The notes under the pieces: model-generated
The model's database searches: none
Told to the model about the DNA's origin: nothing
The model's input: the letters and a program-made list of their open reading frames with translations, nothing else
Shown here: piece by piece, positions 11,037 to 52,204 of the stretch
Position numbering within the stretch: position 1 is the stretch's first letter
How the letters are laid out: every line of letters begins with the position of its first letter
NCBI GenBank assembly: GCA_016201735.1
Contig: JACQCH010000038.1
Location: forward strand, 19,948 to 83,947
Reading direction: 5' to 3'
Source: Candidatus Omnitrophota bacterium
GTDB lineage: Bacteria > Omnitrophota > Gorgyraeia > 1-14-0-20-64-10
Length of the DNA stretch: 64,000 nucleotides
Translations under genes and position numbers: made by a program

Positions 11037-11646
11037 GCTTTACTGCATCGTGGATCGGGCGGTCCTGGAGGGGAGAGAGCCGGTTCGGGTGGCGGAGTCC
11101 GCGATTCGGGGCGGGGCGGAGGTGATCCAGTGGCGGGACAAGAGGGCCGGCGACCAGGAGTTTCTTGAAGTGGCCCGGCGGCTGCGGGATCTGACTCGCC
11201 GTTTGAAGGCCGCCTTTGTGGTGAACGACCGGGTGGCGGCGGCTCTGTTTTCTCAGGCGGATGGGATCCATCTCGGCCATCAGGATCTTCCGGTGAAAGA
11301 GGTCCGGTCCCTCGTGGGCAGGGGGATGCTGATCGGCCGCTCGACCCATTCCCTGGCCGAGGCGAAGGAGGCCCAGGCCGCCGGGGCCGATTACATCGGG
11401 GTCGGGCCCGTTTTCCCCACTCCCACCAAACCGGATTACCCGGCGGTGGGGCTGGAGCTGATTGGCCAGGTCCGCCAAGCGGTCCGGATTCCATCGGTGG
11501 CCATCGGAGGGATTGACCTTGAAACGCTGCCTCTGGTATTATCGGCGGGTGCCCGATGCGTGGCGGTGGTCCGGGCGGTGGCCGGCGCCCCCAATCCTGA
11601 AAAGGCGGCCCGTTCTTTGAGACAGTTGATGGGATCGGCGGGGTGA
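11008..11646 (+). CDS. thiE: Thiamine-phosphate synthase
   Basis: LYCIVDR...GADYIGVGPVFPTPTK...IGGI signatures. Confidence 0.85.
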   Translation: MNKISFQDYKLYCIVDRAVLEGREPVRVAESAIRGGAEVIQWRDKRAGDQEFLEVARRLRDLTRRLKAAFVVNDRVAAALFSQADGIHLGHQDLPVKEVRSLVGRGMLIGRSTHSLAEAKEAQAAGADYIGVGPVFPTPTKPDYPAVGLELIGQVRQAVRIPSVAIGGIDLETLPLVLSAGARCVAVVRAVAGAPNPEKAARSLRQLMGSAG

Positions 11647-12692: not shown

Positions 12693-12790
12693 CAAAAAGT
12701 TCGACCAACTTGCATCACAATCATAGAATGGAAGAATTTTGTGTGACCTGCATAGAAGGTATACAATTTCTGAGTTGGTCGAACTTTTTG
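12693..12790 (+). promoter_or_regulatory. 18-bp perfect inverted repeat (CAAAAAGTTCGACCAACT / AGTTGGTCGAACTTTTTG) with 62-nt spacer abutting the tRNA-Gly 5' end; candidate -10 TACAAT inside
   Basis: Read directly; right arm ends at the tRNA +1 G; TTGTGT-17nt-TACAAT promoter-like spacing inside the loop. Confidence 0.4.
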
Positions 12791-12860
12791 CGGGTGTAGT
12801 TCAATGGTAGAACGGGAGCTTCCCAAGCTCTTAATGGCGGTTCGATTCCGCTCACCCGCT
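12790..12860 (+). tRNA. tRNA-Gly (anticodon CCC)
   Basis: GCGGGTG acceptor/CACCCGC, D-arm GTTC..GAAC, anticodon stem GGAGC/GCTCT with loop TTCCCAA, T-loop TTCGATT, discriminator U; no encoded CCA. Confidence 0.8.
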
Positions 12861-24078: not shown

Positions 24079-24401
24079 CCCTGGCAACAATAGAGGAATT
24101 TCGGCTCCTTCAACTGAAGGTAGCCACCATCTTGGAAGCCAAGGCGCATCCCAACGCCGACAAGCTGCTGGTCTTGAAGGTGGATACCGGAGAATCTCAG
24201 AAGGAAATCGTCGCTGGCATTGCCCGTCACTACAATCCCGAGGATCTGCTCAACAAACGGATCGTCATTGTCGACAATCTCGAGCCGGCCACGATCCGTG
24301 GCGTGATCTCAAACGGGATGCTGCTGGCCGCCCAGGACGGAGAGAAGCTGTCCCTGATTGTTCCTGAGCGCCCCGTCGCGTCTGGGTCCAAGGTTCAGTG
24401 A
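24079..24401 (+). CDS. tRNA-binding protein (CsaA/EMAP-like OB fold)
   Basis: FRLLQLKVATILEAKAHPNADKLLVLKVDTGE...NGMLLA; no canonical in-frame start seen (start uncertain); stop TGA is the left flank of element copy 3. Confidence 0.65.
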
Positions 24402-24541
24402 CCCCGCCCCTCCGGAGTATGCCCTCGGCAGAGAAGGGGGGATCTTCACAATTTGAGTGGGAGATAGCCGAGGGCATCCGTGCCTTCGGCACAGCGCTTC
24501 CATCCCTGCAGGGATGGAAGCGAAACTCCGGAGGGGCGGGG
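24402..24541. repeat. TGA-flanked palindromic intercistronic element, copy 3 (17-bp TIR CCCCGCCCCTCCGGAGT; TGA at 24399-24401 and 24542-24544)
   Basis: Perfect TIR; interior has three hairpins: ATGCCCTCGGC...GCCGAGGGCAT, GTGCCttcgGCAC (UUCG tetraloop), CGCTTCCATCCCTGCAGGGATGGAAGCG. Confidence 0.75.
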
Positions 24542-25167
24542 TGACGATGGAATCCGTCGTCGGTTTTCTCCTGCTGTTCCCGATCTTCATGGCGGCGGTG
24601 GTTGTCCACGAGGTCAGCCATGGCTGGGTGGCGTTGGCCTTGGGAGACCGGACCGCCCTGGCGGCCGGCCGCCTGACCCTGAATCCTTTCAAGCATATGG
24701 ACCCGATCGGGACGGTGGCTCTTCCGCTCATGCTTACGCTGATCCGTTCCCCATTTGTTTTTGGCTGGGCCAAACCGGTGCCCGTGAATTTCATGAACCT
24801 GCGCCGCCCGAAGAGAGACATGCTCTGGGTCGGGGCCGCGGGTCCGGCGGCAAATTTCACTCTGGCGGCAGCGGTCGCTTTTCTTCTAAGAGGGCTCGGA
24901 TCCGCTCTGCCTCTTTGGGCGATTGGGGCCGCCAAGTATCTGATCCTGATCAATCTGATTTTGGGGGTGTTTAATCTGATCCCCATTCCTCCTCTGGATG
25001 GTTCCCGGATTCTCACGGGCCTGCTCCCCTCCCGTTTTGCGAGGGAGGTTCTCCTTCTGGAGCGGTGGGGAACGGTTCTGGTGGTGATCCTGCTTCTCAT
25101 GGGTCTTCTCGATCGGGTTCTTCTGCCGGCGGTCTCCTTTCTCGCTCGGCTGCTGGGGATCTCATGA
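24541..25167 (+). CDS. Site-2 protease family (peptidase M50) membrane protein
   Basis: HEVSHGWVALALGD HExxH motif in TM helix; start either GTG 24541 (element-supplied, SD GGAGG 24530) or ATG 24547. Confidence 0.8.
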   Translation: MTMESVVGFLLLFPIFMAAVVVHEVSHGWVALALGDRTALAAGRLTLNPFKHMDPIGTVALPLMLTLIRSPFVFGWAKPVPVNFMNLRRPKRDMLWVGAAGPAANFTLAAAVAFLLRGLGSALPLWAIGAAKYLILINLILGVFNLIPIPPLDGSRILTGLLPSRFAREVLLLERWGTVLVVILLLMGLLDRVLLPAVSFLARLLGIS

Positions 25168-29867: not shown

Positions 29868-30230
29868 ATGTGGCAAGGAATGAATCAACGGCGTTTCCCC
29901 CGAACGAAATGTCAGTGCAAGGTCCGGATGAAGCAGCAGGGGCACACCTTCACAATCTCCACCGTTACGGAGAATGTCGGCCTCGGGGGTGTCTGTGTCT
30001 ACTTGGAGAAGGGACTGGATATCTTCTCTCCGGTTGATCTGGAGCTTATCCTGGGGGATGGAAAGCCTCCGGTCAAGATCCAAGGGACCATTGTTTGGGT
30101 GGTTCGACGGCGCGAGTTCAAGAAGGGGTACTGTTTTGACACGGGGGTGGAGTTTGCCGAGTTGTCGCCGGAGGACAAGGCTCGTCTTGATTCCGTCATC
30201 GATAAAGTCAGCCCCCCTTCGTTCCCTTGA
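29868..30230 (+). CDS. PilZ domain protein
   Basis: RRFPR...DLSxGG-like PilZ motifs (QRRFPRTKC...TENVGLGGVCV). Confidence 0.8.
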   Translation: MWQGMNQRRFPRTKCQCKVRMKQQGHTFTISTVTENVGLGGVCVYLEKGLDIFSPVDLELILGDGKPPVKIQGTIVWVVRRREFKKGYCFDTGVEFAELSPEDKARLDSVIDKVSPPSFP

Positions 30231-30420
30231 CCCCGCCCCTCCATGGGTTTCTCTGGGGCAAGGTGGGATGGAATACGTAGGCTTCAGAATGCCAGGTAGG
30301 ATATTATCCCGTGGGTTCATTTCCGATTTGCCCCAGAGAATAAAAGCTCATGGAGCTTTTCGGGCCGCCCCCGATGCTCCTCAACTAAGTTTAGGCGTCC
30401 CGACCCATGGAGGGGCGGGG
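30231..30420. repeat. TGA-flanked palindromic intercistronic element, copy 4 (19-bp TIR; TGA at 30228-30230 and 30421-30423)
   Basis: CCCCGCCCCTCCATGGGT...ACCCATGGAGGGGCGGGG; inner 13-bp stem TTCTCTGGGGCAA/TTGCCCCAGAGAA and hairpin AAAAGCTCatgGAGCTTTT. Confidence 0.75.
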
Positions 30421-30812
30421 TGACCGACACAAATATTGAGCCCGCTCTTCTGTATTCCGTCCTCTGCGATGACGTCCGTCGGGAAGACAACGGCAAGTTC
30501 ATCCTGCTGGGATTATTTGAGACGATCGGGGCCCGGGAATTTCCCGCCGCCCACCCGGCCCTGTTTATCGTGAACGGCTGGATTGGAGGAGTCGGATCCT
30601 TTCGCCAGTACAGCCGGATCTTGGATCCCGGCGGTCAGGAGATTGCCAGGGATCAGGAGACAACCTTCCAGCTCGCCACCCTCAAGGCCCGCCACTCCGT
30701 CATTGCCCGGTTCAACAATCTGGAGCTTCCCCAGCTGGGGGAGTATGCGGTTGAGGTCCTGTTAAACGGGGACTTAAAGGTTCGCTATCCGCTGGTGGTA
30801 GAGCAGGCCTAG
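30420..30812 (+). CDS. Hypothetical protein
   Basis: 130 aa; GTG start is the last G of the element TIR plus TG of the flanking TGA; SD GGAGG 30409-30413. Confidence 0.55.
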   Translation: MTDTNIEPALLYSVLCDDVRREDNGKFILLGLFETIGAREFPAAHPALFIVNGWIGGVGSFRQYSRILDPGGQEIARDQETTFQLATLKARHSVIARFNNLELPQLGEYAVEVLLNGDLKVRYPLVVEQA

Positions 30813-36179: not shown

Positions 36180-37025
36180 ATGGATAAGAAACGGGTTCTC
36201 GTGGTGGATGATGAACCGGAGGTCACCTTTGCCCTCCAGGCCTATTTCCTTGGGAAGGGATATGAGATGCTCACTGCCCTGGATGGAATCCAGGCGATGC
36301 GGTACCTGCGTCAGCACGTCATCGATTTGGTTCTTCTGGACATGAAGATGCCGGGCGTCAACGGGATCGAGGTGCTGAAATTCATTCATACCCAGACCCG
36401 TGAGACCAAGGTGATCGTGGTAACTGCCTACGATGTTCAATTTCAGGAGATGGTGGAACGGCTCGGGGTGGACGGTTTCCTGATCAAGCCGTTCGGCATC
36501 GAGGCGCTGACCTCCACCGTGGAACAAGTCCTCTCGGGGCAGAGGGGAAGAGTCCCCAGTGTTCCAGAAGAACCTCTGCCCGTTCCCGGGGCCCCAAATC
36601 CGAAGGCGCGGCTCCTTTTCGTTGAGCCGTCGGAATACACCTACAAATTGAAGGAGGTTTTCTTCTCCAGTCCCGAGAAATGCTTAGGGCTCTACGAGGT
36701 CGCCTCGGCCTACTCGGTGGAGGAGGCCCTTGAGCGGCTGAAAACATTTCAACCCGACATTCTTCTGGTGGAGCTCACGATGCTCGGCCCCTCAGCGGAT
36801 CTGCCGGTCAAGCTCATGGCATCGCCCGGCAGGCCGAAGGAGCTGATCATCCATGGGTCCGGGTCCGCCCTGCCTTTGAATCAGAATGCGAAGATGGAAG
36901 ACTTGAGCAGGCATGGAGTGAAGGTCGTATACAACGAGAGTTTCACCCGGTCGGGGCTCCTCCGTCTGTCGGAGGTGATTCGGAAGATAGCGATCTCCCA
37001 TGGACTTGTGGGAGCGGCGCGATGA
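36180..37025 (+). CDS. Response regulator with tandem receiver domains (second degenerate)
   Basis: VLVVDDEP...LLDMKMPGVNG...KVIVVTAY REC; second REC-like half lacks the phospho-Asp. Confidence 0.8.
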   Translation: MDKKRVLVVDDEPEVTFALQAYFLGKGYEMLTALDGIQAMRYLRQHVIDLVLLDMKMPGVNGIEVLKFIHTQTRETKVIVVTAYDVQFQEMVERLGVDGFLIKPFGIEALTSTVEQVLSGQRGRVPSVPEEPLPVPGAPNPKARLLFVEPSEYTYKLKEVFFSSPEKCLGLYEVASAYSVEEALERLKTFQPDILLVELTMLGPSADLPVKLMASPGRPKELIIHGSGSALPLNQNAKMEDLSRHGVKVVYNESFTRSGLLRLSEVIRKIAISHGLVGAAR

Positions 37026-40369: not shown

Positions 40370-40730
40370 TCGGCGCAAATACCCCCGCATCTCCGAGTCT
40401 ATTCCTTGCCAGATCGCCGTCGGCTCCTCCTCTTTTGTCGCTGAAACGAAGAATCTAAGCTGCGGCGGGGCATCGTGCCAGCTTCCTCAGCCGTTGCCTC
40501 TGATGACGAAATTGGAAGTTATCTTGAACCTCCCTCCCTCCGAGAGTTCTTCGAGCCGCCCCATTCGTATCCTGGGGGTTGTTGTTCGCCAGGAACCGGC
40601 GTCTGTATCGGGAGGGTCGGCCTCTTACCTGACAGCGATCTACTTTTCAGAAATCCAGTTGGAGGATCGGCGGCGGATCGCCGAGTTTGTTCTGCAGAGC
40701 ATGCTCTCCCATGATCGTCGGCGTTCCTAA
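40356..40730 (+). CDS. PilZ-like domain protein
   Basis: RRKYPRI...NLSCGGASC PilZ-like motifs. Confidence 0.6.
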   Translation: MSSLDRRKYPRISESIPCQIAVGSSSFVAETKNLSCGGASCQLPQPLPLMTKLEVILNLPPSESSSSRPIRILGVVVRQEPASVSGGSASYLTAIYFSEIQLEDRRRIAEFVLQSMLSHDRRRS

Positions 40731-41833: not shown

Positions 41834-42613
41834 ATGTTCGTCACTCTCCTAACGGATTTCGGTCTTGAGGACGAATACGTCGGAGTGATGAAGGGGGTGA
41901 TTTTGGGAATCAATCCTTCCGCCACCCTCGTCGATCTCTCTCATCAGGTCCCGCCGGGGGATGTCCGGAAAGCCGGCTGGCTGTTGGCCTGGAGCTGGCC
42001 CTATTTCCCGAAGGGAACGGTTCACCTGGTCGTTGTGGATCCTGGAGTTGGATCCTCCCGGCGGATCCTTTGCCTGGGCCACAGAGGGCACACCTTCCTT
42101 GCTCCGGACAACGGGGTGCTCACTCCTTTACTGGCGGCAATCCGACGGCCCGCGATTTATTCGGTGGAGAACCGGCGTTACGCCCTGGGGAAGATCAGCG
42201 ATACCTTTCACGGGCGGGACATCTTCGCTCCTGCCGCCGGATATTTGTCCAAGGGCTTGTCGGCCTCCCGCCTGGGCCCGAGGGTGAAGGCCTTCAAGGT
42301 GATTCCGATGAGAGGGATCAAGCAGGGCTCCGGTTTTCTGGAGGGGCGGGTGATCGGTTTCGACCGGTTTGGAAACGCGGTGACGAATTTGCCCGCGGAT
42401 AAGATTCAGCGCTTGTTGGCCCGAGGGAAGATCAAGATCCGTATCGGGAGGCATCTCTTGAAAAATATTCATCGCTCCTACGAGGCGGTCGCCCCCGGGA
42501 CTGCCCTTGCGGTGATCGGGAGTCACGACCTGTTGGAGATCGCGGTCTATCGAGGGTCGGCAAAGCGGCGACTCCATTTGACGGAGGGGGAGTCGGTGAG
42601 GGTTGCCGGATGA
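41834..42613 (+). CDS. SAM hydroxide adenosyltransferase family (DUF62/fluorinase-like)
   Basis: LLTDFGLEDEYVGVMKGVI...VVDPGVGS signature. Confidence 0.8.
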   Translation: MFVTLLTDFGLEDEYVGVMKGVILGINPSATLVDLSHQVPPGDVRKAGWLLAWSWPYFPKGTVHLVVVDPGVGSSRRILCLGHRGHTFLAPDNGVLTPLLAAIRRPAIYSVENRRYALGKISDTFHGRDIFAPAAGYLSKGLSASRLGPRVKAFKVIPMRGIKQGSGFLEGRVIGFDRFGNAVTNLPADKIQRLLARGKIKIRIGRHLLKNIHRSYEAVAPGTALAVIGSHDLLEIAVYRGSAKRRLHLTEGESVRVAG

Positions 42614-43041
42614 AGTTTAAGCGGCAGTTCTCGTCCGGAGGAATTGTTTTTCGGAAAACCGGCGCGGGGCTCCGGGTGGCTTTGATCTCCCGCGAGGGAG
42701 GAAAGATCTGGTGTTTGCCCAAAGGGTTGATTGAGAAAGGGGAATCGGTTCAGGAGACGGCGCTGAGAGAGGTCCGGGAGGAGACCGGTTTGATCGGGAA
42801 GATCGTCCGAAAGCTGGGGGATGTGAGCTACTGGTATGTCTCCGATGAGGAAGGAACGAAGTTCTTCAAGAAGGTCTCTTTTTTCCTCCTTAAGCATCAG
42901 GGAGGGAATACCCGTCACCATGATTTTGAGGTGGATGAAGTGGCCTGGATGCCGGTGGAGAAGGCCCTCCGGAAACTGACCTATGAGAGTGAGCGGAGAT
43001 TGATGTTGCGGGCCAAGAGGTTGGTTGGAGGGGCGGGGTGA
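42610..43041 (+). CDS. NUDIX hydrolase
   Basis: Nudix box GLIEKGESVQETALREVREETG; last 4 codons plus stop are a solo element end (GGAGGGGCGGGGTGA). Confidence 0.8.
   Translation: MKFKRQFSSGGIVFRKTGAGLRVALISREGGKIWCLPKGLIEKGESVQETALREVREETGLIGKIVRKLGDVSYWYVSDEEGTKFFKKVSFFLLKHQGGNTRHHDFEVDEVAWMPVEKALRKLTYESERRLMLRAKRLVGGAG
43027..43041. repeat. Solo right end of the TGA-flanked element (GGAGGGGCGGGG+TGA) embedded in the NUDIX 3' end / polX start
   Basis: Exact 15-mer match to the right termini of copies 1, 3, 4; provides SD GGAGG, GTG start of polX (43038) and TGA stop of NUDIX (43039-43041); no left end found upstream. Confidence 0.55.
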
Positions 43042-44765
43042 AGCAGATTGAAGCGGCCGATGCCTTCGATCAAATCGCGGATTTTCTGGAGTTAAAAGGA
43101 GATAACCCTTTCCGGATCCGGGCCTACCGCCGGGCCGCCCTGAATTTGCGGAATCTGACGGAGGATCTGGAGGGGCTGATAAAGAGCGGCTCCTTGGAAA
43201 CAATCCCCGGTGTAGGGAAGGATCTGGCCGCCAAGATTCAGGAGATCGTTTCAACGGGCCGTCTGAAGTTTCTGGAGAATCTCAAGAAGGAGATCCCGGA
43301 AAGTCTCTCGAGTTTGATGACAATTCCTGGGATCGGCCCAAAGACTGCCAAGCGAGTGTACGACCGGTTCAAGGTGAAGTCGATTCAGCACCTGGAGGAT
43401 CTGGTCAAGGCGGGGAAGTTGCGCTCCCTGCCCGGCTTCCAGGAGAAGAAAGAGCAGAATATTCTCCGGGGCATCCAACTGTTGAAGGCCGGGCAGGAGC
43501 GGATGCTTCTGGGGGTCGCGATGGCCTTGGCGGGTCAGTTCATTAAGCCGCTCAAGGGGATGCCGGAAGTCCAGCGGGTTTCCGTGGCGGGATCTCTACG
43601 CCGTTGCTGTGAAACGATCGGGGACCTGGATATTCTGGTTACCTCCAAGAAGCCCGCGAAGGTGATGGACCGGTTCGTCTCCCTTCCTCTCGTTGCCCAG
43701 GTGCAGGCACATGGGGAGACCAAGTCCAGCATCCGGACGGCGCAGGGGGTGCAGGTGGATCTGCGGGTTGTGGAACCGGATGCTTTTGGAGCGGCGCTGG
43801 TTTATTTCACCGGTTCTAAAGCGCACAACATTCGAATCCGATCTCTGGCCAATCGGCTGGGACTGACGATCAATGAATACGGGGTCTTCAAGCTGAAGGG
43901 CGGACGGAAGGTCGCCGGCAGGGAAGAGGAGGATGTTTATAAGACCTTGGGACTTCCTTGGATTCCTCCCGAATTGCGGGAGGACCTCGGTGAACTGGAG
44001 GCGGCTGCGAAGGGCCGGCTGCCCCGTTTGGTAGAGATGAAGGATCTTAAAGGGGATTTTCATATCCATTCCGATTGGTCGGACGGGCACCACCCGATCG
44101 AGGATCTGGCCCGGGCCGCCAAGGCGAAGGGATACCGGTACATGCTTCTGTCCGATCATTCCAAATCCCTTCGGGTGGCCGGGGGCCTGACCGAGTCGGA
44201 GCTGTTGGAACAGATGCGGGAGGTTCAGAAACTGAACCGGCGTTTTCAGTCCTTTCGGATCCTGATGGGGGCGGAGGTGGATATCCTTCCGGACGGCCGG
44301 ATGGATTATTCAGATTCTCTTTTAGCGAAGCTGGATTTGGTGATTGCCGCGGTCCATTCGGCCTTTAAACAGCCGAAGGAGGCGATGACCCGCCGTGTGA
44401 TCCAGGCGTTGACCAATCGATACGTGACGATCCTGGCGCACCCCACGGCCCGCCTGATTGGTGAGCGGGAGCCAATCCAACTGGATATGGAGGAGGTCTG
44501 CAAGGTTGCTTCCCGGACTGGAACGGCTCTTGAAATCAACTGCTACACCCAGCGGCTGGACCTCAACGATGCCCATGCCAGGCAGGCAAAGGAATTGGGC
44601 GCCAAGCTGGTTCTCTCTACGGATACCCATTCGTTGGATCAACTCAACGCAATCGGGTTGGGCCTTGCCATGGCAAGGCGGGCTTGGGTTGAACCGAAGG
44701 GCCTTTTGAACACTCTGGGGCTGGACGATCTTCTGGCCTGGGTTTCAAAAAAACGGAATAAATAA
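43038..44765 (+). CDS. polX: DNA polymerase X family with PHP domain
   Basis: HhH motifs, Pol-beta nucleotidyltransferase (GSLRRCCETIGDLDILV), C-terminal PHP (HIHSDWSDG). Confidence 0.9.
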   Translation: MKQIEAADAFDQIADFLELKGDNPFRIRAYRRAALNLRNLTEDLEGLIKSGSLETIPGVGKDLAAKIQEIVSTGRLKFLENLKKEIPESLSSLMTIPGIGPKTAKRVYDRFKVKSIQHLEDLVKAGKLRSLPGFQEKKEQNILRGIQLLKAGQERMLLGVAMALAGQFIKPLKGMPEVQRVSVAGSLRRCCETIGDLDILVTSKKPAKVMDRFVSLPLVAQVQAHGETKSSIRTAQGVQVDLRVVEPDAFGAALVYFTGSKAHNIRIRSLANRLGLTINEYGVFKLKGGRKVAGREEEDVYKTLGLPWIPPELREDLGELEAAAKGRLPRLVEMKDLKGDFHIHSDWSDGHHPIEDLARAAKAKGYRYMLLSDHSKSLRVAGGLTESELLEQMREVQKLNRRFQSFRILMGAEVDILPDGRMDYSDSLLAKLDLVIAAVHSAFKQPKEAMTRRVIQALTNRYVTILAHPTARLIGEREPIQLDMEEVCKVASRTGTALEINCYTQRLDLNDAHARQAKELGAKLVLSTDTHSLDQLNAIGLGLAMARRAWVEPKGLLNTLGLDDLLAWVSKKRNK

Positions 44766-50678: not shown

Positions 50679-52193
50679 GTGCAAGAAATCAGATCGTTCA
50701 TTCAAGATGTGCCTCAAATCGTTCCGGAGAGCTGGTGTCTGAAGTGCAAGATCTGCTGCCGTTTTCCGGACACAAAAGAGGTGCAGACTCCGACCTGGTC
50801 TCCTCTGGAAGCGGATTGGGCAGTGAAGGCAGGCGGCCAGCCCTCCTGGTTCGAGAAAAGTCCGGATTCGGTTTCCTTAAACCCCACCCTTCATTCGTGT
50901 GGGGAGAGCGGGTATCGTTGCCCGGCTTTCCAAATGGAGGGGAACATCTGTTCTATTTATTCCGTCCGGCCGCTGGACTGCAGGTTGTATCCTTTCGTTC
51001 TAACGAGAAACCCGGGGAAGACAGAAGTCCTGCTGGCCATGGATACCAAGTGCCCCTACATCCAGGCCCATGGGATGGATCCGGAGGTGGTCCGTTATAC
51101 CGCGACACTGACCCGCACCCTGGAATCTCCGGCGGCGCTGGATTATTTGAGAACGAACCCGAAGATTATCGGTGATTTCTGGCCGGAGTTTCTCTCCGTC
51201 GGGGCGCTTGGGGGGATGACAGCGGACCTTCAGGGACAGAACACGGCCCCCCACCCTGCCCTTCAGCCCCTCGGGTGGTCTCAGCGGTCCCTGCTCGAAG
51301 AATCCTTATCCTTTTTGAAGCACACCTACTCCGGCTACACAGCGGCCGGCATCTTGGGATGGTCGGATCTGATCCGTTACTGGTGGGCCTCTTTAGAGGG
51401 GGCCTTCTGTCTCTTCGCGCAGCAGGGGGGAGGAGTTTTTATGCCCCTGCCCCCTCTGGGTCGGTCGGTTCGGCCGGAAGCTTTTGACGCGGCCTGGAAG
51501 ATTCTTTTCGAGAGCAATCAGGGAAGCGAGGTGTCAAGGATTGAAGGAGTTGAGCCGGCGATGATGACCCAGGAGGTTCTGAACCGGTTCCGATGGAGAG
51601 AGGGGGAGGCGGAATATCTGTATAGGAGAGAAGATCTGGCCGCCCTTCGGGGAGATCGATACCGGTCCCAGAGAGGAGCGATCAATCGCTTCCAGAGGTG
51701 GTTCCCTTCCTTTCGTTCTCGCCCTTTTCAAGATCAGGACATAGTCCCCTGCCTTCAGCTCTATACGTTATGGGCGATTCGGCGCCAGCAGGCGGATCCG
51801 GGATCCTTCTCGAAGGCGCTGGTTCGGGACGGGCTCTTTTTCCATCGGCGGCTGATGATGAGCCATCGGGAACTGGGCCTGACGGGACGGGTCTTAGAGG
51901 TGGAAGGGCAGATCCGGGGCTACACCTTCGGCGCCCCGGTCTCTTCCGATGTTTTTTGCGTTTTTCTGGAGATTGCCGACCGGTCGTTTCCTGGGACAAA
52001 CCAACTGCTGTTCTTGGAATTTTGTAAGGAGCTTGGGGATTATCCTCTCATCAACGCGATGGGAGACAGCGGACTTCCCGGATTGCGCCGGGCGAAGCAG
52101 GCCTACCGGCCGGTTGGGATGGCGCGGGTGGTGGAGCTGGCGGGAGTTGAACCCGCGGCCTCTGCAGTGCGATTGCAGCGCTCTCCCAACTGA
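50679..52193 (+). CDS. Two-domain hypothetical protein (N-terminal CxxCxxCC YkgJ-like zinc/Fe-S domain; C-terminal DUF2156/GNAT-like)
   Basis: WCLKCKICCRF...CPAF...CSIYSVRPLDCRLYPF cluster; the 3' end overlaps tRNA-Ala on the opposite strand. Confidence 0.55.
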   Translation: MQEIRSFIQDVPQIVPESWCLKCKICCRFPDTKEVQTPTWSPLEADWAVKAGGQPSWFEKSPDSVSLNPTLHSCGESGYRCPAFQMEGNICSIYSVRPLDCRLYPFVLTRNPGKTEVLLAMDTKCPYIQAHGMDPEVVRYTATLTRTLESPAALDYLRTNPKIIGDFWPEFLSVGALGGMTADLQGQNTAPHPALQPLGWSQRSLLEESLSFLKHTYSGYTAAGILGWSDLIRYWWASLEGAFCLFAQQGGGVFMPLPPLGRSVRPEAFDAAWKILFESNQGSEVSRIEGVEPAMMTQEVLNRFRWREGEAEYLYRREDLAALRGDRYRSQRGAINRFQRWFPSFRSRPFQDQDIVPCLQLYTLWAIRRQQADPGSFSKALVRDGLFFHRRLMMSHRELGLTGRVLEVEGQIRGYTFGAPVSSDVFCVFLEIADRSFPGTNQLLFLEFCKELGDYPLINAMGDSGLPGLRRAKQAYRPVGMARVVELAGVEPAASAVRLQRSPN

Positions 52194-52204
52194 GCTACAG
52201 CCCC
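52129..52204 (-). tRNA. tRNA-Ala (anticodon CGC), CCA encoded
   Basis: Reverse complement GGGGCTGTAGCTCAGTTGGGAGAGCGCTGCAATCGCACTGCAGAGGCCGCGGGTTCAACTCCCGCCAGCTCCACCA; G3:U70 Ala identity pair. Confidence 0.8.

Follow-up and report, generated by a model that had tools for sequence, protein, structure and literature searches.

A probable relic of a MITE-like element at the nudix-polX stop/start overlap of an uncultured Omnitrophota bacterium

Introduction

The Correia (NEMIS) elements of Neisseria are short, non-coding sequences of about 100-330 bp, bounded by terminal inverted repeats and flanked by a short target duplication. They occur as many dispersed copies belonging to subfamilies, lie in or next to operons, where they are co-transcribed, and carry expression signals in their repeats. 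The Rickettsia palindromic elements (RPE) are palindromic mobile repeats which reside within protein-coding sequence and are translated.

Here we describe a family of short elements, and a lone end of one of them, in a window of 64,000 nucleotides from a Candidatus Omnitrophota bacterium (assembly GCA_016201735.1, contig JACQCH010000038.1, positions 19,948 to 83,947); window positions are used below. Like the Correia elements, this family is short, non-coding and multi-copy, and has expression signals in its repeats. It differs from them in duplicating TGA, where Correia elements duplicate TA, in that its surviving sites are stop/start overlaps of the form NTGA, and in its hosts, which are MAGs of Omnitrophota and MAGs labelled Planctomycetia. 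A literature search by sequence and by combinations of MITE, Shine-Dalgarno and stop/start gave no account of such an element.

Results

A 15-mer common to the end of NUDIX and the start of polX

At 43027-43041 (+ strand) the window carries the exact 15-mer GGAGGGGCGGGGTGA, a 15/15 match to the right end of a short palindromic element. Read in codons it is GGA GGG GCG GGG TGA, that is, G-G-A-G-stop of a NUDIX hydrolase whose 143-aa sequence is identical to NCBI-annotated protein P0001 from a 'Candidatus Omnitrophica' MAG. The start codon of polX is the GTG at 43038-43040, inside the 15-mer, with a GGAGG 6 nt upstream of it, and the two genes meet in a GTGA overlap (Table 1). A sequence-only reading of the window had described an exact right-end 15-mer without a left end upstream, and the search bears this out, as no CCCCGCCCCTCC-like 12-mer was found within 400 bp upstream of the solo, even at ≤3 errors. 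It had also stated that these bases encode the last four NUDIX residues and stop and give polX its Shine-Dalgarno sequence (SD) and GTG, in agreement with the ORFs.

Table 1 Features of the window discussed in the text.
Feature	Position	Strand	Description
Full 102-bp element	248..349	+	nested within another palindromic repeat
Half-decayed element	1207..~1355	+	left end intact; right end decayed (ccaaaGGAGGGCGGCCGGAG; GGAGGGCGGCCGGAG); end coordinate (1355) approximate
Probable older, decayed solo right end	11632..11646	+	GGATCGGCGGGGTGA, 13/15, at thiE/next-gene GTGA overlap
Full 146-bp element	24399..24544	+	left TGA closes 175-codon frame; right GTG opens 208-codon ORF
Full 196-bp element	30228..30423	+	between PilZ and DUF6941 genes; L002 site empty (TTGA overlap)
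NUDIX hydrolase gene	42610..43041	+	143 aa; ends ...LVGGAG-stop; last four codons and stop within the putative relic
Solo right end	43027..43041	+	12-bp terminal inverted repeat GGAGGGGCGGGG plus TGA
polX (family X polymerase with PHP domain)	43038..44765	+	575 aa; starts at GTG of the 15-mer

Counted together with the near-reverse-complement TGACCCCGCCCCTCC, the 15-mer has 9 matches in the window at ≤2 mismatches where 0.72 were expected, and none of the 100 dinucleotide-preserving shuffles that served as a control for chance reached 9 (0/100). Eight of the 9 are the ends of four elements, with right ends matching GGAGGGGCGGGGTGA at 335, 24530 and 30409 and left ends (TGACCCCGCCCCTCC) at 248, 1207, 24399 and 30228; the match at 43027 has no partner. 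The sequence evidence that the 15-mer derives from a mobile element is strong, and its present use as NUDIX C-terminus and stop, and as predicted SD and start of polX, is supported by the reading frames; we infer that the relic acts as a ribosome-binding site (RBS).

A family of short elements inserted at TGA

The termini of the family are perfect 12-bp inverted repeats (CCCCGCCCCTCC/GGAGGGGCGGGG) in 3 copies in the window and 25 copies in other loci, and they are flanked on both sides by a duplicated TGA. Family members measure 102-328 bp, with subfamilies of 107, 113, 155, 158 and 161 bp recurring within and between MAGs. Alignment of the four window copies showed interiors that are largely unrelated, the termini alone being common to them. 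At the half-decayed copy the next long ORF starts ~270 bp further on, and the right end does not serve as a start. The 102-bp element is centred, at ~207-391, in a different palindromic repeat (GTCATTGCGAGCGAA...GAAGCAATCTC on one side, GAGATTGCTTC...CTCGCGATGAC on the other), so that two repeat families are stacked there; the apparent ORF tails and heads flanking this stack are probably repeat-encoded.

Three pairs of empty and filled sites define the inserted unit and its target. In L002 (GCA_023248075.1), the PilZ and DUF6941 genes, 87% and 93% identical in amino acid sequence to those of the window, overlap as ...TCTCCT TGA CCAACAAC (TTGA), and the filled site in the window reads ...TTCCCT TGA [CCCCGCCCCTCC...GGAGGGGCGGGG] TGA CCGACACA. 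Set against each other, ...CCT TGA CCAAC and ...CCT TGA[CCCC...GGGG]TGA CCGAC show that the insertion consists of the 12-bp inverted repeats and the interior, with TGA on both sides; the DUF6941 start changes from TTG in L002 to GTG in the window through the last G of the element. The other two pairs come from Planctomycetia-labelled MAGs (L011, L031 and L066) and consist of AGG TGA CGG in L011 against the element at 3513 of L066, and of GGGT TGA CGT in L031 against the element at 7165 of L066. Furthermore, L078, a member of the 155-bp subfamily, can be aligned with its relatives only in the orientation antisense to its own TGA..TGA flanks. Interiors are thus found in both orientations between these flanks, which identifies TGA as a target-site duplication rather than an oriented part of the element. 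Judged from the three pairs, the family is a mobile, MITE-like insertion whose target is the TGA of NTGA stop/start overlaps, and at the level of sequence its copies have the features by which MITEs are defined structurally: inverted repeats, a target duplication, short length, absence of coding capacity and multiple copies.

The same 12-bp repeats also bound AT-rich interiors in L013, L015, L028, L043, L044, L052, L071 and L074, where the flanking direct repeats are 4 bp long (in gene sense TGAA five times, TAAA twice and TGGA once); the pattern points to a sister family that duplicates 4 bp and is less strict in its choice of target. In the Omnitrophota MAG locus L007, two elements on the + strand, at 4006-4333 (328 bp, the longest copy seen) and 6003-6109 (107 bp), bracket a single 434-codon ORF in a cassette-like arrangement.

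A scan of species-representative genomes for the two 12-mers spaced 71-131 nt apart matched at least 80 loci. Among the matches listed, the TGA-flanked family proper is limited to MAGs of two kinds, several from Omnitrophota and others labelled 'uncultured Planctomycetia'; NCBI taxonomy places Omnitrophota in the PVC group. An apparent spread across phyla (Bacteroidota, Chloroflexi, Armatimonadota, Actinomycetota) was rejected, as many of the matches were unrelated GC-rich palindromes that have no TGA flanks and contain the 12-mer within a longer arm folding on itself. This class of palindrome containing the 12-mer, for example ccccacCCCCGCCCCTCCccaaggggGAGGGGagc..., is widespread in Bacteroidota, Chloroflexi, Armatimonadota and Verrucomicrobiota (L008, L009, L014, L017, L019, L020, L022, L024, L045, L047 and others). 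A search of 34 loci for an autonomous parent found no segment of 0.4-3.5 kb bounded by the terminal inverted repeats (TIRs) and holding a plausible transposase ORF; the long TIR pairs it returned were neighbouring short elements or chance near-matches. A 3-bp duplication of the form T-N-A would point to an enzyme like that of IS5/IS1031.

Orthologous nudix-polX junctions in relatives

The 15-mer is missing from the orthologous junction in 3/3 relatives. Where the window reads ...AAGAGGTTGGTTGGAGGGGCGGGGTGAAGCAG, L001 (NUDIX 87% identical in amino acid sequence) has TTGCTCGAGCCGCGGTGAAACAG / ...AAGAGGTTGCTCGAGCCGCGGTGAAACAG, with NUDIX ending K-R-L-L-E-P-R-stop in a GTGA overlap; L002 (76%) has ...ATCGAACCCTAATGAAGCAG, with TAATG and 1 nt common to stop and start; and L091 (69%) has ...TTCCGATGAAGCAG, with an ATGA overlap. 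The position of the polX start codon is the same in the window and in the relatives (GTG in L001, ATG in L002 and L091). In the alignment NUDIX homology stops no more than 3 nt short of the 15-mer; overall the window junction is longer by 3 nt. Across the NUDIX family the tails after KAKRL are variable, and the closer relatives (69-87% identity) mostly end in R, as in ...LEPR, ...ENLR, ...KAFR and ...LEFR.

These comparisons of NUDIX orthologues and of nudix-polX junctions in relatives had been proposed by the sequence-only reading, for which a C-terminus and junction shared with distant orthologues would have spoken for an ancestral or coincidental match; GGAG proved unique to the window lineage. 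By these alignments, the 15-mer took the place of the native tail and the predicted native RBS in this lineage. The same reading had called the insertion ancient, which is at odds with an undecayed 15-mer (15/15) that the closest relative lacks. Its suggestion that the element left a coupling module behind needs one correction. L001 (GTGA) and L091 (ATGA) overlap at the same codon, and judging from these sequences the stop/start overlap geometry at nudix-polX is ancestral, predates the 15-mer and was not created by the element.

A further relative, L090 (JGI 3300009444; NUDIX 79%), has a 65-nt hairpin insert at the same nudix-polX TGA (564-634), flanked on both sides by GATGA, and there polX starts with ATG. 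The insert begins AACCCCGCCTTTCTCTGG, and its first 8 nt (ACCCCGCC) match the family left end; its start resembles that left end and the interior of window copy 4, and its right side is not family-like. These resemblances are only suggestive of a family relative at this junction.

Recurrence of solo ends

In 244 kb of family-bearing sequence, the only clean solo besides that at nudix-polX is found in L038 (ERP125453_co1_528), where an FkbM-family methyltransferase ends ...VLEEGGAG-stop and the GTG is the start of a glycosyltransferase; solo left ends in clean form were not seen. A 90%-identical relative (L087) has the native GAAGAGGGGTAGGCCAAGATGAAT / GAAGAGGGGTAGGCCAAGATGAATGTC, with a TAG stop, a 6-nt spacer and ATG, and the L038 junction, GAGGAGGGAGGGGCGGGGTGAACGTC, is one base shorter. 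The L038 solo is independent of the window solo and has the same reading frame. Compared with the native junction, the two clean solos hardly alter the length (+3 nt in the window, -1 nt in L038), and each breaks at the inner edge of the repeat, with 0-3 nt of possible interior left.

Over 27 loci, the differences between native NTGA junctions and the 15-mer have their mode at 7-10/15 positions, no native junction being closer than 2 mismatches. Apart from the exact matches, the near-15-mer junctions are only those at 11632 (2 mismatches) and 37011 (3 mismatches). At the thiE junction corresponding to the former, a 74%-identical relative (L089, ~730-748) carries GGAGGGACGGGGTGA, a 14/15 match, and an 83% relative (L088, ~835-853) carries the divergent GAGATCGACCGTCCGTTGA; the thiE site is probably either an older, decaying solo relic or a junction that received repeated insertions. 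At 37011-37025, GGAGCGGCGCGATGA (12/15) lies at an ATGA overlap between two long ORFs and may be another decayed relic or a chance match.

Placement at gene junctions and predicted coupling

In 25/28 exact pairs an ORF of at least 85 codons begins at the right GTG, against 41% for a background of random GTGA (P about 2e-7), two of the three exceptions being truncated by the end of the locus. In 21/28 a frame of at least 80 codons ends at the left TGA, against a background of 11% (P about 8e-15). These counts place the surviving copies at stop/start junctions, mostly NTGA overlaps. The terminal G of the element and the TG of the duplicated target recreate a GTG start in the original frame, and the repeat supplies a GGAGG 6 nt upstream of this rebuilt start. 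Insertions are tolerated because the left TGA keeps the upstream stop while the right repeat and the target together rebuild the start.

Full copies fold very stably with the two repeats as a basal stem (z -12.8 and -10.9), the copy at 248 at -82.9 kcal/mol and that at 24399 at -103.2 kcal/mol; such a stem sequesters the SD and start, with the upstream stop directly facing them. The RNA-unfolding model of translational coupling (PMC12548453) requires an arrangement of this kind, in which the strand paired with the SD and start follows at once on the upstream stop. A ribosome terminating at the left TGA would then open the stem and expose the downstream start. At the solo junction the RNA fold shows no significant structure (z +0.41), leaving SD and start exposed, and this unstructured GGAGG-N6-GTG overlapping the stop would correspond to the arrangement of classical -4 coupling.

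Discussion

We think it likely that the solo is the surviving right terminus of a MITE-like element which inserted at nudix-polX and was later removed by deletion. A copy of the element would have inserted at the pre-existing nudix-polX NTGA overlap in the window lineage, and a deletion would then have removed everything from the final few NUDIX codons through the left TGA and the left repeat to the end of the interior. NUDIX would from then on read in frame through GGA GGG GCG GGG to TGA, and polX would initiate from GGAGG-N6-GTG overlapping the NUDIX stop. Because no relative with the full element at this junction (of the form ...TGA[CCCCGCCCCTCC...GGAGGGGCGGGG]TGAAGCAG) was found, the order of insertion and deletion, as well as the mechanism of the latter, is something that we infer; among NUDIX relatives the protein collection has a gap from 87% to 100% identity, the range in which an intermediate state might be carried. 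Length-neutral solos broken at the inner edge of the repeat are not obviously expected from random deletion, and this pattern may also reflect selection that keeps the stop in frame and the C-terminus intact.

Several routes to a lone end agree poorly with the junctions. As a model for the deletion, simple microhomology slippage between the native GAGG/GAGGGG and the GGAGGGG of the repeat predicts out-of-frame products, unlike those observed. Insertion of a single arm by 'hairpin collapse' would put TGA directly upstream of the 12-mer and add 15 nt, neither of which is seen. A left-end remnant inside NUDIX was also rejected, given that none is detectable at ≤3 errors within 400 bp and that homology with the relatives reaches within 3 nt of the 15-mer; of the two fates that the sequence-only reading had offered for the left part, loss stands and absorption into the gene does not. 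A short-patch templated replacement, in which an element end elsewhere in the genome served as donor through template switching or gene conversion and no full element ever resided at the junction, seems to us unlikely, even though both clean solos exchange a native stretch almost base-for-base (+3 nt, -1 nt) and have their first base exactly where the 12-bp repeat has its inner edge, retaining nothing of the interior. The flank homology which could guide such an event is very short, a GAGG-like stretch of bases to the left and TGA to the right, and the family inserts at exactly such TGA, so that a prior insertion is the simpler premise.

Convergence or chance, whereby selection for a strong SD and a GTGA overlap gave the same 15 bases, is very improbable and effectively refuted. 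It can draw on the ancestral NTGA overlap and on the G-rich SD regions expected upstream of starts, but the spacer GGCGGG is under no known constraint, the differences of native NTGA junctions have their mode at 7-10/15, the exact 15/15 match is found at two unrelated junctions in two genomes which both bear elements, and the expectation at ≤2 mismatches is 0.72 per window, with none of the shuffles reaching the count observed. We give still less credence to the 15-mer being a pre-existing attachment or target site, or an ancestral seed of the family, instead of a remnant: it is located exactly where elements insert, yet the three empty sites are without GGAGGGGCGGGG upstream of TGA, and the junctions of the relatives are without the 15-mer. 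The least probable alternatives, to which we assign next to no weight, are that the 15-mer is the right end of a large composite element with a left end far upstream, or that it is an assembly artefact. The nearest 12-mer on the '-' strand, with 2 mismatches, does lie 2.6 kb upstream at 40383; however, such matches occur at chance frequency (30 seen vs 27.6 expected), this one has no TGA flank, and L002, although free of element ends, keeps the gene order AlaDH-SAM_HAT-NUDIX-polX. As for an artefact, three Logan assemblies (L004, L005, L006), independent of one another and made from other sequencing runs, have the identical nudix-polX junction, which contradicts it.

Insertion followed by deletion remains the reading that we prefer for the solo. 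More tentatively, as a possibility that we rate slightly less likely than not, we propose that the MITE terminal repeat evolved as a portable translational-coupling module, the ends of which were repeatedly exapted as RBS, start or C-terminal tail (at nudix-polX, at the junction of FkbM and glycosyltransferase, and probably at thiE). An outward-facing SD together with the first base of the start would keep both genes intact after insertion at NTGA, and the folded element would keep coupling ribosome-dependent across 100-200 nt. If this is true, a mobile element has adapted specifically to colonise operon gene boundaries in bacteria of the PVC group.

The family is a small mobile element that lives in the 4-nt stop/start overlap, documented here with empty-site controls, and the solos at nudix-polX and in L038 suggest that the ends of an element can outlive it as tail, stop, SD and start. 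In uncultured bacteria of the PVC group, mobile DNA would thereby have a definite means of rewriting C-termini and the signals for translation initiation. The finding also calls for caution in annotation, as recurrent ...GGAG-stop tails and identical RBS strings can be transposon scars, and the hairpin geometry of the element offers a natural test case for the RNA-unfolding model of coupling.

Several known classes of repeat were considered and set aside. REP/REPIN sequences are RAYT-mobilised, imperfectly palindromic units with a GTAG head and no target duplication; the 12-mer is not self-complementary, has no GTAG and is flanked by a duplicated TGA. Integron attC sites carry the R''/R' cores RYYYAAC...GTTRRRY, and none are visible in the window copies read, whose termini are CCCCGCC.../...GGCGGGG. 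Elements derived from IS200/IS605 have no TIR, possess asymmetric subterminal hairpins and insert strand-specifically on the 3' side of a short target, whereas here the TIRs are perfect and both orientations of the interior occur between identical flanks. A covariance-model scan of Rfam at the gathering score gave nothing at any element copy or solo; the only matches in the window were two tRNA genes, at 12790-12860 (+) and 52132-52204 (-).

Among the systems that the locus does resemble, Correia elements carry promoter boxes, unlike the repeat of the TGA family, which carries an SD and the first base of GTG. The solo is partly translated, as RPE are; unlike RPE, which lie whole and in frame within genes, it contributes 12 nt of one terminus only, providing a four-residue C-terminal tail, and its main role would be at the gene boundary. 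As a lone terminal repeat left after the loss of its unit, it is comparable to REP singlets, which are decayed REPINs, and to solo LTRs, although solo LTRs come from recombination between direct repeats, which the inverted repeats of the TGA family cannot undergo. Full copies, burying SD and start in a stem opposite the upstream stop, follow the arrangement of the unfolding model, and the solo, a GTGA overlap with an SD upstream, resembles classical -4 (NTGA) coupling. It would differ from the classical case in that the signals appear to have been brought by mobile DNA instead of having evolved in place.
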